64,000 bases of DNA, from assembly GCF_003334815.1 (NCBI RefSeq), contig NZ_QOWO01000013.1. One strand, given 5' to 3'. A model generated the notes under the pieces. That model was given only the letters and a program-made list of their open reading frames with translations, ran no database searches and was not told the DNA's origin. A program made the position numbers and the translations under genes. Below, piece by piece: positions 10,699-64,000 of this stretch (positions are counted from its first letter, which is position 1; each line of letters starts with the position of its first letter). This stretch comes from Escherichia coli. Its GTDB lineage: Bacteria; Pseudomonadota; Gammaproteobacteria; Enterobacterales; Enterobacteriaceae.

Positions 10699-10988
10699 GG
10701 TTCTCTCCCTAAAAATCTGTCTGGCAGGGTAGCGATTTGTGCGCATTGTCACGATTGAGATTTTTTAAGGGGAGGGGAAATTGATAACTTGTAGTTATGT
10801 GAAATCGCTATTTTCTGTAGCAGAGATGCATTCTTCTGACTTCTTGTCTGAGAAAATGCATAAGAAAAAATAGGTTAAAACTGAGGGGGGAAAAGAAAGG
10901 TGCAATATTTAGCCATTGTGTTCACTGCACCTGGACCTTGGCTTACGCATCGGGTGTCTCAATCAACAAAAAGAGTTTTTAGTTTCTG

Positions 10989-11876: not shown

Positions 11877-12033
11877 GTGAGTATCTCACGTTCTCAGTGT
11901 GCTGGGCAAAAAAACATCGCAAAATCTGGAGCAGGCACGCAAAACAGAATTGAATGTTGCGGGGAAGAAAAATGCCGCTCTGTTTGAGTGGCGGCATTTG
12001 TGAAGGCGGAAAAGTAAGAATTGGCGTTACGAG

Positions 12034-12897
12034 TTATTCGATGTTCTGAATCTGCTCGCGCATCTGCTCAATCAACACTTTCAGCTCGATGGCGGAGTTT
12101 GTCACTTCGGCATTGATAGACTTCGACGCAAGAGTGTTCGACTCGCGGTTGAACTCCTGCATCATAAAATCCAGACGACGACCAACCGCTTCTTTTTTCT
12201 TCAGAATGTTGTAGGTCTCTTTGACATGCGCTTCGAGGCGATCCAGTTCTTCGGCAACGTCAATTCGTTGTGCCAGCAGAACCAGTTCCTGCTCCAGACG
12301 GTTGTTTTCCAGTTGCACCTGAGCATCTTCCAGCTTCGCGACCAGACGCTCACGCTGCCATTGCAGGATTTCCGGCATATGGGAGCGGACTTTGACCACT
12401 TCGGCGGTGACGCCTTCCAGACGCTGCTCGATCAATGCTTTCAGTGCCTGACCTTCGGTTTCGCGCGCGACAATAAAGTCGTCCAGCGTACCATCCAGCG
12501 CCGCGAGAATTTCAGCGGCAATGGCGTCAAGATCCTGCTCCTGGGCTGCCATCACGCCCGGCCAGCGTAGAATATCAACCGGGTTGATTTCCCCTTCGTC
12601 ACTCTGCATTTTTACCCAGTTCGCGGCAGTTACCAGCTGTTTAGCCAGTTTTTCGTTGAGGATCAGCTCACCTTGCGCGCTAACATCTGGCTCATAGCGC
12701 AGGGTACATTCCACTTTACCGCGCGTCAGGCGAGAACGAATACGCTCGCGAACGACAGGTTCAAGGCTACGGAACTGCTCCGGCAGACGAAAGTAAGTTT
12801 CCAGATAACGCTGGTTTACCGAGCGCATTTCCCAGGTTGCGCTCCCCCATTCACCCTTGATTTCACGCCGGGCGTAGGCGGTCATACTGCGGATCAT
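12034..12897 (-). CDS. yicC: YicC-family stress-induced protein
   Basis: ORF track 287 aa MIRSMTAYARREIK...; divergent from rph. Confidence 0.88.
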   Translation of the reverse strand: MIRSMTAYARREIKGEWGSATWEMRSVNQRYLETYFRLPEQFRSLEPVVRERIRSRLTRGKVECTLRYEPDVSAQGELILNEKLAKQLVTAANWVKMQSDEGEINPVDILRWPGVMAAQEQDLDAIAAEILAALDGTLDDFIVARETEGQALKALIEQRLEGVTAEVVKVRSHMPEILQWQRERLVAKLEDAQVQLENNRLEQELVLLAQRIDVAEELDRLEAHVKETYNILKKKEAVGRRLDFMMQEFNRESNTLASKSINAEVTNSAIELKVLIEQMREQIQNIE

Positions 12898-13023
12898 AGA
12901 CGTTCCTGTTTATAAAAGGAGAGGTGGAAGGATTATAGCCATCGATGCCTTGTCAGGATAGGAATAACCGCCGGAAGTCCGTATAATGCGCAGCCACATT
13001 TGTTTCAAGCCGGAGATTTCAAT

Positions 13024-13740
13024 ATGCGTCCAGCAGGCCGTAGCAATAATCAGGTGCGTCCCGTTACCCTGACTCGTAACTATACAAAACATGCAGAAGG
13101 CTCGGTGCTGGTCGAATTTGGCGATACCAAAGTGTTGTGTACCGCCTCTATTGAAGAAGGCGTGCCGCGCTTCCTGAAAGGTCAGGGCCAGGGCTGGATC
13201 ACCGCAGAGTACGGCATGCTGCCACGTTCTACCCACACCCGTAACGCTCGTGAAGCGGCGAAAGGTAAGCAGGGTGGACGCACAATGGAAATCCAGCGTC
13301 TGATCGCCCGTGCTCTTCGCGCGGCAGTAGATTTGAAAGCGCTGGGTGAGTTCACCATTACGCTGGACTGCGACGTGCTTCAGGCTGATGGTGGCACGCG
13401 TACCGCGTCGATTACGGGTGCCTGCGTGGCGCTGGTAGATGCGCTACAGAAGCTGGTGGAAAACGGCAAGCTGAAAACCAATCCGATGAAAGGGATGGTA
13501 GCCGCAGTTTCTGTCGGAATTGTGAACGGCGAAGCGGTTTGCGATCTGGAATACGTTGAAGACTCTGCCGCAGAGACCGACATGAACGTAGTGATGACCG
13601 AAGACGGGCGCATCATTGAAGTGCAGGGGACGGCAGAAGGCGAGCCGTTCACCCATGAAGAGCTACTCACCTTGTTGGCTCTGGCCCGAGGGGGAATCGA
13701 ATCCATTGTAGCGACGCAGAAGGCGGCGCTGGCAAACTGA
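13024..13740 (+). CDS. rph: ribonuclease PH, full-length 238-aa form
   Basis: ORF track 13000..13740 starts at TTG; conserved start [14 protein letters not shown] at ATG 13024; C-terminus ...[11 protein letters not shown] intact. Confidence 0.92.
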
Positions 13741-13747
13741 TTTTTAA

Positions 13748-13773
13748 GGCGACTGATGAGTCGCCTTTTTTTT
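13748..13773 (+). terminator. pyrE leader attenuator (intrinsic terminator hairpin + T8)
   Basis: GGCGACT-gatg-AGTCGCC stem followed by TTTTTTTT; starts 7 nt after rph stop, 33 nt before pyrE ATG. Confidence 0.8.
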
Positions 13774-13805
13774 GTCTGTAGAAAAGTAAGATGAGGAGCG
13801 AAGGC

Positions 13806-14447
13806 ATGAAACCATATCAGCGCCAGTTTATTGAATTTGCGCTTAGCAAGCAGGTGTTAAAGTTTGGCGAGTTTACGCTGAAATCCGGGCGCAAAAGCCC
13901 CTATTTCTTCAACGCCGGGCTGTTTAATACCGGGCGCGATCTGGCACTGTTAGGCCGTTTTTACGCTGAAGCGTTGGTGGATTCCGGCATTGAGTTCGAT
14001 CTGCTGTTTGGCCCTGCTTACAAAGGGATCCCGATTGCCACCACAACCGCTGTGGCACTGGCGGAGCATCACGACCTGGACCTGCCGTACTGCTTTAACC
14101 GCAAAGAAGCAAAAGACCACGGTGAAGGCGGCAATCTGGTTGGTAGCGCGTTACAAGGACGCGTAATGCTGGTAGATGATGTGATCACCGCCGGAACGGC
14201 GATTCGCGAGTCGATGGAGATTATTCAGGCCAATGGCGCGACGCTTGCTGGCGTGTTGATTTCGCTCGATCGTCAGGAACGCGGGCGCGGCGAGATTTCG
14301 GCGATTCAGGAAGTTGAGCGTGATTACAACTGCAAAGTGATCTCTATCATCACCCTGAAAGACCTGATTGCTTACCTGGAAGAGAAGCCGGAAATGGCGG
14401 AACATCTGGCGGCGGTTAAGGCCTATCGCGAAGAGTTTGGCGTTTAA
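13806..14447 (+). CDS. pyrE: orotate phosphoribosyltransferase
   Basis: ORF track 13791..14447; conserved start [13 protein letters not shown] at ATG 13806 (213 aa); PRPP-binding motif [13 protein letters not shown]. Confidence 0.95.
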
Positions 14448-14483
14448 AGAAACTCGCCGGATGAAAAGTCATCCGGCGTCATA

Positions 14484-15080
14484 TTACTGCAACTGTGCCG
14501 CAATTAGCGGCCAGCGGGCGTCAAAATCATCCGTCGGGCGGTATTTAAATTCGCTGCGGACAAAACGTGACAGCATACCTTCACAGAAGGCCAGGATCTG
14601 GCTTGCCAGCAGGGTTTCATCGGTGGTGTAACCTTCACCCTCACGCATTCTCTTTTCACGCAATACCTGGCGCAGCTGCGCTTCAATACGCTCGAACAGC
14701 TGGTTGATGCGCCCTTGCAGGCGATCCTGTTCAAACATTAGCGCATGACCAGTGAGGATGCGGGTCAGGCCAGGATTACGCTCACCAAAACCGAGAAGCA
14801 GCAACACAATCAGACGCAGGCGCGCTGTGGTGTCTTTCTCATCTTTCAGAATCAGGTTGATGCGAGTAATCAGGCTATCTTCGATAAACTCAATCAGGCT
14901 ATCGAACATGCGGGTCTTACTGGGGAAGTGGCGATACAGTGCCGCTTCGGAAACGCCGACAGAGGCGGCCAGTTTTGCCGTCGTGATACGTTGGCTTCCA
15001 TCGCTGGATTCCAGCATCAGCGCCAGAGACTGAAGTATTTCCTCGCGACGGTTCCTTTTCGCAGTTTGTTTTTCTGCCAT
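14484..15080 (-). CDS. slmA: nucleoid occlusion factor SlmA (TetR family)
   Basis: ORF track 14484..15122; start [16 protein letters not shown] at ATG 15080 (198 aa). Confidence 0.92.
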
Positions 15081-15186
15081 GTTACAAAATACCCCTGAAA
15101 ATAAGCACTTGCCAGGCGGCACCCACGCTATGACCGCAAACGAAATGTTTGCGGCTATGTTATGACGTTATTCGGATGCGTATGTG

Positions 15187-15645
15187 CTACTGACGACCAG
15201 AGTGACCAAAGCCGCCTTCACCGCGGTCGGTGGCGTCGAAATCTTCCACCAGATTAAATTCAGCCTGTACTACCGGAACAAAAATCATCTGGGCGATGCG
15301 TTCGCCAGGTTGAATGGTGAAGCTGTCCTGACCACGGTTCCACACGGAAATCATCAACTGGCCCTGATAGTCAGAATCGATCAATCCTACCAGGTTACCA
15401 AGCACGATACCGTGCTTATGTCCCAATCCGGAGCGCGGCAGCATCATTGCCGCCAGTGAAGGATCGGCAATATGAATCGCCAGCCCGGTCGGAACCAGCG
15501 TAGTGTCACCCGGAGCCAGTTCTACGGCGTCGTTGAGACAGGCACGCAGGTCAAGTCCGGCAGAGCCAGAGGTGGCATAAGTCGGGAGCGGAAATTCCTT
15601 CCCAACGCGCGGGTCCAGAATCTTAACGTCGATTTTTTTCATCAT
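15187..15645 (-). CDS. dut: dUTP diphosphatase
   Basis: ORF track 152 aa [11 protein letters not shown]...; second ATG at 15642 equally possible. Confidence 0.93.
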
Positions 15646-16843
15646 AACGGGTCACGATCTCGTCGAGTAATAATTGGCCAAGGAGCTCTTTGCGCTCAAG
15701 CGGTAAGACTTTATCTCCGTCCTGCCAGAAAAGGTGTAATGCGTTGTTGTCGCTGTTAAATCCTTGAGTTGGCTGGGAAACATCGTTCGCGCAGATCAGA
15801 TCAAGGTTTTTACGGATACGTTTTTGCCGGGCGTATTCTTCCACATTATTTGTTTCGGCGGCAAATCCAACGACGTAGGGTCGATGGTCTTTTAGTGCGG
15901 CAACGCCTGCGACGATATCGGGGTTTTTAACCATTTTTATTGTTAATTCATCACCCTGCGTGGCCTGCTTTTTGATTTTCTCTGGGGCCACGGTAGCTGC
16001 GCGATAATCCGCCACGGCGGCGCAGCCGATAAAAATATTTTGCTGCTGTACAGAAGCATTCACGGCGGCTTCCATTTCCAGCGCGGTCATCACATCAACA
16101 CGTTTAACAAACGGTGGCGTCGGTAGTGAAACCGGACCTGATACCAGCGTGACGTTCGCGCCACGACGGGCAGCGGCGGCGGCGATAGCAAAACCCATCT
16201 TGCCGGAGCTGTGATTAGAGATATAACGCACCGGATCGAGCGGTTCACGCGTCGGGCCGGCGGTAATCATAATGTTCAGATGTTTCAGGTCGTTGACGGG
16301 CGAAAAATGCGCTACCGCCATATCCACAATGGTTAACGGATCGAGCATTCGCCCAGGACCGATATCACCACAAGCCTGACTGCCACTGTCTGGCCCCCAG
16401 ATGAGCAAACCACGGGAAGCAAGCACCTCTAAATTATGCTGCGTGGCAGCGGCACGGTACATCTGCTGGTTCATGGCGGGGAGCACGGCTACAGGCGCAG
16501 GTGTAGCCAGACAAATCGTCGATACCAGGTCATTCGCCATTCCGGCAGCAACACGGGCAATCAAATCTGCCGTGGCAGGGGCGAGAATCACTAAATCAGC
16601 CCATTTACCCAGCTCAATATGGCCCATAGCGGCTTCGGCTGCCGGGTCCAGCAGACTGTCGGAAACGGGATAACCAGAAACCGCCTGCAAGCTAAGTGGG
16701 GTGATAAAGGCTTTTGCCGCTTCGGTCATGGCTACGCGGACGTCGGCCCCGCGATCGCGCAAACGACGCACCAGTTCAGGGGTTTTATAGGCAGCAATAC
16801 CGCCGCTAACGCCGAGAACGATTTTTTTACCGGCCAGGCTCAT
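15623..16843 (-). CDS. coaBC: bifunctional phosphopantothenoylcysteine decarboxylase/synthetase CoaBC (Dfp)
   Basis: ORF track 15623..16915; conserved start [20 protein letters not shown] at ATG 16843 (406 aa); 3' end overlaps dut start by 23 nt. Confidence 0.92.
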
Positions 16844-17014
16844 GATGATTTTTCCTGTAGGGTGACACCAGAAGTTGGCGATTTTATCACAATACTTTTG
16901 TTGTCGTGCCTTCACCTGAGATTCACTTTGCGAGGCGCTTTCCAGGATTGAAAACTGGCCGTCGATTTAACGAAACGGCTATGACAGGATGCGAGCACCA
17001 CAAAGGAGGTGAAG

Positions 17015-17683
17015 GTGAAAAACAATTCACAGCTGTTGATGTCGCGCGAAAAAATGCTGAAGTTTGGTATTAGCGCCTTAACGGATGTCGAGCTGCTGGC
17101 GCTATTTCTGCGTACCGGAACGCGCGGTAAAGATGTATTAACCCTGGCAAAAGAGATGCTGGAGAATTTCGGCTCTCTTTATGGCTTGTTAACCTCTGAA
17201 TATGAACAATTTAGTGGCGTTCATGGAATTGGCGTGGCGAAATTTGCCCAGTTAAAGGGGATTGCTGAACTGGCGCGGCGTTACTACAACGTGCGGATGC
17301 GTGAAGAAAGCCCTTTACTCAGCCCGGAGATGACGAGGGAATTTTTACAAAGCCAGCTCACGGGTGAGGAGCGGGAGATCTTTATGGTGATCTTTCTCGA
17401 CTCCCAACACCGGGTTATAACGCATAGGCGTCTTTTTTCCGGCACGCTAAACCATGTTGAAGTCCATCCTCGGGAAATTATCCGCGAAGCGATAAAAATA
17501 AACGCCTCGGCGCTGATCCTTGCACATAATCACCCTTCGGGTTGTGCTGAACCCAGTAAAGCGGATAAACTCATTACTGAACGGATAATAAAGAGTTGTC
17601 AGTTCATGGATTTACGCGTGCTCGACCATATCGTGATTGGGCGTGGAGAGTATGTTTCTTTTGCCGAACGCGGCTGGATTTAA
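17015..17683 (+). CDS. yicR: RadC-like JAB-domain protein YicR (UPF0758)
   Basis: ORF track 17009..17683 (GTG); second GTG 17015 lies 6 nt after AAGGAGG; JAMM-like HNHPSG motif. Confidence 0.85.
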
Positions 17684-17878
17684 CCCGCTATGCGCGATCC
17701 TTCGGGATCTTTGTCTGTTCGGGACTTGAGCACATCGCTGAGTCAGCGTATACTACGCCACCTTTGAGAATCTCGGGTTTGGCATTTGGGCCTGGCAATC
17801 GAGAGTTCACATAGAACTGCGATGACCGGGCTGTAAAGCCTGACGAGGCGCCAATACCCCATACGAAGCTCGAGCTAA

Positions 17879-18136
<258 letters not shown>

Positions 18137-18153
18137 GTACTTAGAGGAAATAA

Positions 18154-18324
<171 letters not shown>

Positions 18325-18346
18325 TTCTCGCTTTGATGTAACAAAA

Positions 18347-18372
18347 AACCTCGCTCCGGCGGGGTTTTTTGT
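18347..18372 (+). terminator. intrinsic terminator of rpmB-rpmG operon
   Basis: AACCTCGC-tccg-GCGGGGTT hairpin followed by TTTTTTGTT. Confidence 0.65.
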
Positions 18373-18421
18373 TATCTGCTTGCCCCCATATTGACTGCAT
18401 CTGTTCATTCCTGGAGATGCT

Positions 18422-19231
18422 ATGCCTGAATTACCCGAAGTTGAAACCAGCCGCCGCGGCATAGAACCGCATCTCGTTGGTGCAACCATTCTTCATGCAG
18501 TGGTGCGCAACGGACGCTTGCGCTGGCCGGTTTCAGAAGAGATCTACCGTTTAAGCGACCAACCAGTGCTTAGCGTGCAGCGGCGGGCTAAATATCTGCT
18601 GCTGGAGCTGCCTGAGGGCTGGATTATCATTCATTTAGGGATGTCTGGCAGCCTGCGCATCCTTCCAGAAGAACTTCCCCCTGAAAAGCATGACCATGTG
18701 GATTTGGTGATGAGCAACGGCAAAGTGCTGCGCTACACCGATCCGCGCCGCTTTGGTGCCTGGCTGTGGACCAAAGAGCTGGAAGGGCATAATGTGCTGA
18801 CCCATCTTGGACCGGAGCCGCTTAGCGACGATTTCAATGGTGAGTATCTGCATCAGAAGTGCGCGAAGAAAAAAACGGCGATTAAACCGTGGCTGATGGA
18901 TAACAAGCTGGTGGTAGGGGTAGGGAATATCTATGCCAGCGAATCACTGTTTGCGGCGGGGATCCATCCGGATCGGCTGGCGTCATCACTGTCGCTGGCA
19001 GAGTGTGAATTGTTAGCTCGGGTGATTAAAGCGGTGTTGCTGCGTTCGATTGAGCAGGGTGGTACAACGCTGAAAGATTTTCTGCAAAGTGATGGTAAAC
19101 CGGGCTATTTCGCTCAGGAATTGCAGGTTTACGGGCGAAAAGGTGAGCCGTGTCGGGTGTGCGGTACGCCGATTGTGGCGACTAAACATGCGCAGCGGGC
19201 AACGTTTTATTGTCGGCAGTGCCAGAAGTAA
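18422..19231 (+). CDS. mutM: formamidopyrimidine-DNA glycosylase (Fpg/MutM)
   Basis: ORF track 269 aa; N-terminal MPELPEVE and C-terminal zinc finger CRVCGTPI...CRQC. Confidence 0.95.
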
Positions 19232-19240
19232 TTCATGCGC

Positions 19241-19262
19241 GCCGGATGGCATACCATCCGGC
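19241..19262. terminator. perfect 9-bp hairpin between convergent mutM and coaD (possible bidirectional terminator)
   Basis: GCCGGATGG-cata-CCATCCGGC; no flanking T-run, so function uncertain. Confidence 0.4.
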
Positions 19263-19269
19263 ATAAACG

Positions 19270-21034
<1,765 letters not shown>

Positions 21035-21379
21035 AGTAAATAGCTGACTTATGGATGTGCTGGGGATTCTATGTATTTAGCTGTGGCTTTACCATTACTT
21101 TTCCCGTTTTTGACTTAAATAGCTTCAGTTTGGTCTGATCTGCCGCTACATCTTCTTTTTTTTGTATTTTTATGCGATTCATTGAAACTCGGCCCCATTT
21201 TCAAATCTACATAGGCCGTACTGACATTATCGAAATGCTATTTTTTATCTATTTGATTTTTATGATTAAAGTATATTTTGTGTATAAAAATCATTCGGGT
21301 CGGATTGCTGCGAAAGAAATGATACACTAGCACGTCAAAGTAAGTGCGTTATCAGTATTCAGGTAGCTGTTGAGCCTGG

Positions 21380-21391
21380 GGCGGTAGCGTG
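21380..21391 (+). promoter_or_regulatory. ops element (GGCGGTAGCGTG) in the JUMPstart-like leader of the waaQ operon
   Basis: Exact 12-nt ops consensus on the coding-sense strand, 48 nt upstream of the waaQ GTG. Confidence 0.8.
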
Positions 21392-21438
21392 CTTTATTCT
21401 GCTTAACTTAACCAGACAATCACACAAAAGAGTCGCTA

Positions 21439-22509
21439 GTGGAAAAGCCATTTCGAAAAATCCTGGTCATAAAGATGCGATATCATGGGGATATGTTATT
21501 AACTACTCCTGTCATCAGTACGCTCAAGCAGAATTATCCTGATGCAAAAATCGATATGCTGCTTTATCAGGACACCATCCCTATTTTGTCTGAAAACCCG
21601 GAAATTAATGCGCTCTATGGGATAAGCAATAAAGGTGCGGGAACTTTCGATAAAATTAAAAATGTGCTTTCGTTGATAAAAACTCTGCGTGCGAATAATT
21701 ATGACCTGGTCATTAATCTTACGGATCAGTGGATGGTGGCGCTGCTGGTACGTTGTTTACCTGCACGGATGAAAATATCGCAACTTTATGGTCATCGGCA
21801 GCATGGTATTTGGAAAAAAAGCTTCACACACTTAGCGCCAATACACGGTACACATATTGTTGAGCGTAATTTATCGGTCCTTGAGCCATTAGGTATTACC
21901 GATTTCTACACCGACACAACAATGAGTTACGCCGAAGATTGCTGGAAGAAGATGCGCCGGGAATTAGATGCCCTGGGCGTAAAAGATCATTATGTTGTCA
22001 TCCAACCGACAGCGCGTCAGATATTTAAGTGTTGGGATAACGATAAATTTTCTAAGGTTATCGATGCGCTGCAACAGCGAGGCTATCAGGTTGTGCTAAC
22101 CTGTGGGCCCTCGGCAGATGATCTCGCTTGTGTAGATGAGATTGCACGAGGTTGCGAAACAAAACCCATTACTGGCCTTGCAGGTAAAACACGTTTTCCT
22201 GAACTGGGTGCATTAATTGATCATGCAGTGCTTTTTATTGGTGTGGATTCTGCGCCGGGACATATTGCAGCGGCAGTGAAAACGCCAGTCATTAGTCTAT
22301 TTGGTGCAACGGATCACGTATTCTGGCGTCCCTGGACCGAGAATATTATTCAATTCTGGGCGGGGAATTATCAGAAAATGCCGACCCGGCATGAACTTGA
22401 CCGCAACAAAAAATATCTTTCTGTTATCCCAGCGGAGGATGTGATCGCCGCTACGGAAAAGCTGTTGCCAGAAGATGCCCCTTCAGCTGACAGGAATGCA
22501 CAATTATGA
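21439..22509 (+). CDS. waaQ: LPS heptosyltransferase III WaaQ (GT9)
   Basis: ORF track 356 aa from GTG 21439; first in-frame ATG is 21475 (344 aa), see findings. Confidence 0.88.
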   Translation: MEKPFRKILVIKMRYHGDMLLTTPVISTLKQNYPDAKIDMLLYQDTIPILSENPEINALYGISNKGAGTFDKIKNVLSLIKTLRANNYDLVINLTDQWMVALLVRCLPARMKISQLYGHRQHGIWKKSFTHLAPIHGTHIVERNLSVLEPLGITDFYTDTTMSYAEDCWKKMRRELDALGVKDHYVVIQPTARQIFKCWDNDKFSKVIDALQQRGYQVVLTCGPSADDLACVDEIARGCETKPITGLAGKTRFPELGALIDHAVLFIGVDSAPGHIAAAVKTPVISLFGATDHVFWRPWTENIIQFWAGNYQKMPTRHELDRNKKYLSVIPAEDVIAATEKLLPEDAPSADRNAQL

Positions 22510-61407: not shown

Positions 61408-62352
61408 CTATCTTATATCACTGGGTTTTTCTGGCGTACCTTGCATATTAGAAATGGGGTGCCCAGATGGCCCATATGTTATCCAATTACCAAGGTCTTT
61501 TGTTGTTATAGCCATTAGATCCTTATTTGAATTAAGGTTCGTTGGTGCTGTTAGCACTGTATCCATTTTTAACTTACCATTAGTTCCTCGCCCCCACCAC
61601 GTCCATAGCGTGTCAGGTCCTATTACATTTGTATGTAACTCTTTAGCTAATTGGCTAGCAAATGAATTTTGTCCTTTACCTGTATTACAAGAAAATAACC
61701 AAACTGTCATCCCATCTTTATAATTCCCATCAAATTTAATTAGATATGCTAGATCTTTAGCTGTCATGATACTGCGCGTTGCGGATTCAATAGATGTGGG
61801 GGTACCATGCCCCCCGATTGTGAAAACGCCTGGGATATTAATCTCATCAGCTACAGAATGGATAAGATCACTTTCGGGGTATAAATTTATATCAACCAAA
61901 CCTTGCGGATCTACATTTATGACCGGATTCAACGGATACTGATAAAAATTCCATCCCCCCTTCAGTCCAATCGGATCCTGAGTGATATACCGCCCCAGCA
62001 GCGGGTCATAATAGCGGTGGCGGTTGTAATACAGGCCGGACTCCTCATCATACTGCTGACCCGGCAGGCGAATGAGCTGCTGCAGATGATGCGGGTTCTC
62101 ATCACTCAGCAGGTTGCCCCATTCATCATATTCTGCGCACCACGCTGTTGCCCCTTCCGTGCTGATGAGCGCCAGCGGCAGGCCGCGATGGTCGCAGTGG
62201 TACAGGTGGATTTTTCGCGCCGGCGTGTACACCGGGTCCATCTGGTTTTGCATCTGCTCCACCGTCAGGCCGCACGATGCCAGCCAGCGGCGGCTTTCCT
62301 CACTCACCCGGTCAGCCAGGATTTCACTTTCCAGCCGGTCGAGCATCTGCAC
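61408..62352 (-). CDS. yibJ: orphan Rhs C-terminal module YibJ: rhs core 3' fragment fused to an alternative C-terminal tip
   Basis: ORF track 314 aa (GTG 62352 or ATG 62346); first ~150 aa nearly identical to the rhsA core end, diverging after DPQGL. Confidence 0.8.
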
Positions 62353-63256: not shown

Positions 63257-64000
63257 CTATCTTTTTTTATCGTTTGACTGTCTGGAGTGACGACAATTCC
63301 AGGCTTTCTGTGTGCTTTTTGCATCTTTAGCACTAATATCACCACAATCAATTAGTTCCTGAAGTACGTCACATCTGTCGGGTTTTTTCCCATCACTCCA
63401 GAATCTGTCATTTATTATGTCATTGACACGATCAGTTATCCCTGTGTCTGCAACATTTCCACGAGAAGCTATCATTGTTATATCTAATGCTAGTCCCGGA
63501 TTATTCAATATTAGAGAGTCAAATATTCTTTGTGATGCTGTATCGTTCCACCATTTTGTCAATGCTTTTGCAGCATTATCATCTGCTTGCTGCTGTGCAG
63601 GGCTTTTGGGCCATGGAATTGGCAAGGGGAATGGTCTAGGAAAAACTTCTAACCCCAGAGGATCTGTATTCGTAACTGGATTCAACGGATACTGATAAAA
63701 ATTCCATCCCCCCTTCAGCCCAATCGGATCCTGAGTGATATACCGCCCCTGCAGCGGGTCATAATAGCGGTGGCGGTTGTAATACAGGCCGGACTCCTCA
63801 TCATACTGCTGCCCCGGCAGGCGGATAAGCTGCTGCAGCTGATGCGGGTTCTCTTCATTCAGCAGGTTGCCCCATTCATCGTATTCTGCGCACCATTCTG
63901 TTGTCCCTTCCTTGCTGATAAGGGCCAGCGGCAGGCCGCGATGGTCGCAGTGGTACAGGTGGATTTTTCGCGCCGGCGTGTACACCGGGTCCATCTGGTT
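63257..64000 (-). CDS. rhsA: RhsA, 3' end only (core C-terminus, DPLGL junction and C-terminal tip); gene continues beyond window end
   Basis: Open reverse-strand frame from the window end to TAG at 63257-63259; ...[44 protein letters not shown]... Confidence 0.88.

Follow-up and report, generated by a model that had tools for sequence, protein, structure and literature searches.

We consider it very probable that the 64,000-nt stretch of Escherichia coli DNA studied here (the window; contig NZ_QOWO01000013.1) carries an ordinary wild-type rph-pyrE operon from a natural, very close relative of strain K-12, and that it is not K-12 derivative DNA. The feature itself is the ordinary state of a well-described locus: the operon, its attenuator and the rph-1 allele are all already known.

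The rph gene occupies positions 13024-13740 on the plus strand. Its translation runs without interruption from the ATG at 13024 to the TGA at 13738-13740 and gives a protein of 238 aa. An intact frame of this length had been claimed in the sequence-only reading, whose coordinates and C-terminal sequence were right. The protein scored 380.3 bits to the NCBIfam equivalog TIGR01966 (RNase PH; cut-off 141.5) and covered model positions 1-235 of 236, so that the C-terminal helix is included. It also aligned end to end with the solved RNase PH 1r6l (352 bits), and its alignment to RNase PH structures extends to their residue 237. By family membership the window Rph is RNase PH, and phosphorolytic 3'-5' exoribonuclease activity is predicted for it.

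Three sites near the 3' end of the gene (all plus strand) matter for the comparison with K-12. The C at 13670 occupies the middle position of codon 216 (ACC, Thr), as placed by the alignment with MG1655, the codon position and the allele counts given below; residue 216 shows no conservation in the two solved homologues aligned and is Ala in 1r6l. The GGGGG run at 13690-13694, in codons 223-224, is intact, and this is where one G is lost in rph-1 according to the MG1655 alignment. At 13709-13711 there is an out-of-frame TAG, which is unread in the window and which is the stop codon of rph-1 strains by the MG1655 translation.

Consensus scanning found no sigma-70 promoter upstream of rph. A TTGTCA...TATAAT pair near 12950-12988 was considered as the rph promoter and dropped, because its two elements are too far apart. 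A k-mer scan detected a 10-bp direct repeat, GCAGAAGGCG, on the plus strand at 13633-13642 and 13716-13725, with the copies spaced 83 nt in the window and 82 nt in MG1655. Between this pair of repeats a compensatory 82-bp rph-pyrE deletion is reported to arise recurrently in laboratory-evolved MG1655 (PMC2784333).

Window positions 13600-13830 were aligned to the rph-pyrE region of MG1655 (NC_000913.3), which was taken as the K-12 reference and in which rph (3815863-3816549) is annotated as truncated RNase PH. The sequence-only reading had described rph-1 as the loss of 1 bp close to the 3' end, truncating RNase PH in reference K-12 strains, and it had proposed this alignment, holding that an identical interval would speak against an rph+ background. 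The interval was not identical. There were two differences: the GGGGG of 13690-13694 is GGGG in MG1655, and the C at 13670 is T. The described deletion is thus present in MG1655, and the window, with its five G, lacks the lost G-C pair and the premature TAG of rph-1 and is of an rph+ background as had been proposed. From 13695 to at least 13830, a stretch that takes in the hairpin, the spacer and the beginning of pyrE, the window equals MG1655. It means that the attenuator, the spacer and the pyrE start are the same in both, and that only the incoming reading frame differs. A lowering of pyrE expression by rph-1, also named in that reading, agrees with published work (PMC9997739, PMC2784333 and PMC5933015, all of which cite Jensen 1993).

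EMG2 is nominally wild-type K-12, and it was considered as an rph+ ancestral K-12 reference. It was rejected because rph is annotated as frameshifted, that is as rph-1, in its assembly (NZ_CP099588.1, 67181-67896), and DH1 (NC_017625.1) was taken instead as the rph+ K-12 comparator for the first 50 kb of the window. It is reported that EMG2 carries rph-1 and that WG1 is without it (PMC9997739).

The pyrE attenuator, an intrinsic terminator hairpin followed by a T-run, lies between the two genes at 13746-13773 (plus strand), and was recognized by terminator scan, folding and identity to MG1655. The hairpin at 13746-13767 reads AAGGCGAC-TGATGA-GTCGCCTT, with the stem formed by 13746-13753 and 13760-13767 and TGATGA as the loop. 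Its last two bases are also the first two of a run of eight T (13766-13773). The terminator scan detected the hairpin independently, there with a stem of nine pairs. Folding of the RNA of 13730-13790 (61 nt) gave -17.3 kcal/mol (z = -2.84). The element is therefore a G+C-rich hairpin with a U-run between rph and pyrE, and its interval 13695-13830 is identical to the experimentally studied attenuator of K-12 (MG1655).

The rph stop codon TGA is 5 nt (TTTTT) upstream of the hairpin when two A-U pairs are included in the stem, which should be near enough for a terminating ribosome to cover the 5' arm. A distance of 7 nt had been given before; it is correct when counted to the G+C core (GGCGAC) and not to the first possible pair of the stem. 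The 251-nt rph-pyrE junction was found at 95% identity or more in 5,407 of 5,426 genomes, and many field isolates are 100% identical to it. The search for a curated RNA family of the attenuator, with Rfam at the gathering score over 12000-22000, gave JUMPstart alone. Downstream, pyrE (13806-14447, plus strand; ORF list and TIGR00336) encodes an orotate phosphoribosyltransferase of 213 aa, which scored 240.6 bits to TIGR00336 (cut-off 106.8) and matches MG1655 pyrE in length and position.

In the summary that PMC2784333 gives of Bonekamp et al. 1984 and Jensen 1993, the promoter of rph also drives pyrE, an intrinsic terminator separates the two genes, and readthrough requires that the ribosome translating the last part of rph follow RNA polymerase closely, as it does when low UTP slows the polymerase. 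The mechanism and the rph-1 phenotype are also given in PMC9997739 and PMC5933015, again with reference to this earlier work. Applied to the window, the 3' end of rph would double as the leader of pyrE. Translation would run up to the TGA at 13738-13740, which leaves 5 nt between the stop and the terminator hairpin. At low UTP, RNA polymerase would be slowed, and the leading ribosome would stay near and cover the 5' arm of the hairpin. With the 5' arm covered the terminator would not form, and transcription would run on through pyrE; ample UTP would let the polymerase outpace the ribosome and terminate. In rph-1 strains ribosomes would stop at the TAG of 13709-13711, 29 nt farther from the hairpin than in the window (34 nt against 5 nt from the stem), so that the hairpin would form whatever the UTP level and pyrE would be under-expressed.

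The reach of a ribosome extends about 12-15 nt beyond the A-site codon. A ribosome of this usual reach that terminates 5 nt before the stem should cover the 5' arm, while one at the rph-1 stop, at 34 nt, should be unable to do so. The window has the anatomy required by the attenuation model; the UTP-dependent coupling itself rests on published work and on inference.

The alleles at the two variable sites were counted in 5,426 complete genomes, using queries of 79-80 nt that cover both sites, for which the band of 99% or more corresponds to an exact match. The window allele, C with GGGGG, was exact in 1,025 of the 5,426 genomes, including O157:H7. T with GGGGG was exact in 180, and the matches listed for it (60) included C600, DH1, DH5alpha, DH10B, MC4100, NCM3722, RR1, NEB and O16:H48 strains. 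T with GGGG, which is rph-1, was exact in 167, and among the matches listed were MG1655, W3110, BW25113, J53, HMS174 and derivatives. The fourth combination, Thr216 (C) with the deletion, was exact in none of the 5,426, so this collection offers no case of the rph-1 deletion on the common wild allele. The T allele at 13670 was exact in 347 genomes, and among the matches listed all were K-12 or O16:H48. The window has C at this K-12 lineage marker (T, Ile216).

From these counts, the window carries the common wild rph allele. Ile216 seems to mark K-12 as a whole, as checked for the K-12 strains among the matches listed, and in the census collection the deletion occurs on the K-12 haplotype alone. 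The rph-1 allele marks the MG1655/W3110/EMG2 lineage only, and K-12 does not imply rph-1. The statement that reference K-12 strains carry rph-1 holds for MG1655 and not for K-12 in general, since the rph+ allele of K-12 was found in 180 complete genomes and rph-1, which is restricted to one branch of the K-12 pedigree, in 167. As about half of complete K-12 genomes are rph+, an intact rph is unremarkable even in K-12.

The whole window aligned with MG1655 3765573-3829571 on the reverse strand as one block with 99.966% identity, and at this identity the waa and rhsA regions, which had been described as of K-12 type, are as in K-12. The differences were 19 substitutions and three one-base indels, that is 22 sites scattered from 1305 to 62263 over 64 kb, and DH1 differs from MG1655 at two sites in 50 kb. 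DH1 has 13 of the 14 differences between MG1655 and the window in the first 50 kb; the exception is the deleted G. At window position 2546, in recG, DH1 has a private A where the window, MG1655 and 160-11H1 have G, which fits its separate RecG accession (WP_000678420.1 vs WP_000678419.1).

Over window 39001-64000 every listed K-12 strain scored 46,123 bits, no matter whether it was rph-1 (MG1655, W3110, J53) or rph+ (DH1, C600, WG1), and this score corresponds to the eight mismatches counted for MG1655 in 39001-64000. About a dozen field isolates outscored K-12 on the same interval. The best 25-kb matches among those listed were field isolates from humans, livestock and water, and they differ from the window by roughly 2-5 substitutions per 25 kb, as judged from bit scores. 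A perfect match to either 25-kb end of the window was found in none of the 5,426 complete genomes.

Of the 22 sites, the chicken-meat isolate 160-11H1 (NZ_AP031375.1) agrees with the window at 15 and with K-12 at seven. Hence about two thirds of the differences are changes of the K-12 branch, and the remaining third belong to the window lineage alone. At the 15 sites, which include the rph G-run, MG1655 differs from both the window and 160-11H1. The other 14 are 1305, 10885-10890, 13670, 19531, 21396, 29435, 36341, 38989, 52876, 53027, 54842, 59015, 59403 and 61653. Nine of the 15 are covered by DH1; it has the MG1655 allele at eight, which are all of the 14 that it covers (up to 38989), and not at the G-run. 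By this distribution the 14 sites seem to have changed on the K-12 branch before the rph-1 split.

The seven sites private to the window lineage, against K-12 and 160-11H1, are 15187, 17042, 21149-21156, 27736, 29276, 62250 and 62263. At 15187 the dut stop is changed from TAA to TAG in the window. At 21149-21156 a T-run in the divergent waaA/waaQ promoter region is one base shorter, which could be a homopolymer sequencing error. Positions 62250 and 62263 fall in the yibJ Rhs fragment. Upstream of waaQ, a JUMPstart RNA element (RF01707, 55 bits) was located at 21353-21391 on the plus strand. The K-12-specific site 21396, A in the window and T in K-12, is 5 nt downstream of it and inside the MG1655 interval annotated as the small RNA RirA (3808166-3808238). 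The end of the window, 63257-64000 on the minus strand, is the 3' part of rhsA and is identical to K-12 there; the rhsA counterpart of 160-11H1 is annotated as a frameshifted polymorphic toxin.

The intact rph had been assigned either to a repaired K-12 derivative or to a close relative, and only the close relative stands. A K-12 laboratory strain in which rph-1 was repaired, through site-directed reversion or with the gene brought in by transduction from an rph+ K-12 donor, would have the observed gene order, a waa core cluster of K-12 type, the K-12-like rhsA tip and the 99.966% identity seen here, and true rph-1 reversions have been made in the laboratory (PMC5933015). Such a strain, however, is expected to have Ile216 (T at 13670), as in the rph+ K-12 strains among the 180 matches listed, and would read T with GGGGG. 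It should also nearly equal MG1655, as DH1 does with its two sites in 50 kb, but the window has 14 in the same stretch, and its differences extend to both window ends. The C at 13670 and 20 other differences, scattered as they are and showing the pattern described for DH1, exclude this option for practical purposes. The extra G could alternatively be an assembly or homopolymer error in a true rph-1 genome. The site is a homopolymer of five bases, and two more of the MG1655 differences are changes of homopolymer length (10885-10890 and 21149-21156). But GGGGG is present in all non-K-12 genomes examined and in the 180 genomes that carry the rph+ allele of K-12, the deletion combined with C at 13670 occurs in 0 of 5,426 genomes, and the surrounding haplotype is non-K-12. 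We give such an error hardly any credence.

It is also very unlikely, though somewhat less so than these two, that the window comes from a K-12 recipient which received at least 64 kb of non-K-12 donor DNA by P1 transduction or conjugation, with the whole window being donor DNA. P1 carries fragments of about 90-100 kb, and one fragment could cover the whole window, so the scattered differences are compatible with this origin. The donor would need to be an unusually K-12-like wild strain, however, and we know of no such K-12 construct made with a K-12-like wild donor. The window allele was in no K-12 genome among the matches listed. Hybrid laboratory strains do exist, for example RR1/HB101 (PMC5379014). 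The simplest source is found among field isolates, many of which match the window better than K-12 does.

A natural relative of K-12 thus remains by far the preferred source of the window, and no observation speaks against it. By its sequence, the strain of origin is a natural relative of K-12, phylogroup-A-like, in which RNase PH and the pyrimidine control of pyrE are predicted to be normal. With such an origin and an intact rph, the K-12 annotations (rph as pseudogene, pyrimidine limitation) should not be transferred to this strain. More doubtful, and in our opinion improbable, is the further idea that the window stands for a sister lineage of K-12 that was never domesticated and would be ancestral at about 14 sites in 64 kb, where the compared K-12 strains would be derived, including Thr216 to Ile in Rph and the substitution in the RirA/waaQ leader, and that a change such as Ile216 might have a functional effect. 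The effect might have escaped notice, since K-12 serves as the wild type. If such a sister lineage is real, it would be usable to separate changes that preceded the isolation of K-12 from those acquired in the laboratory.

Compared with the known forms of this locus, the rph-1 operon of MG1655, W3110, BW25113, J53 and EMG2 is the same operon as in the window with one G of the 13690-13694 run missing. In MG1655 this changes residues 224-228 to ESNPL, and the product ends ...ARGESNPL* at 228 aa and matches TIGR01966 positions 1-221 of 236, whereas the window Rph has 238 aa and matches 1-235. The rph+ allele of K-12 (DH1, C600, DH5alpha, DH10B, MC4100 and NCM3722; WP_001247096.1) has the same 238 aa length, stop, attenuator and spacing as the window, and its protein differs by one substitution, Ile216 (ATC) in place of Thr216 (ACC). 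The wild-type operon of 160-11H1, with an Rph annotated as ribonuclease PH (WP_001247097.1), is identical to the window over 13024-14447, and over the whole 64 kb this isolate is unlike the window at 10 sites.
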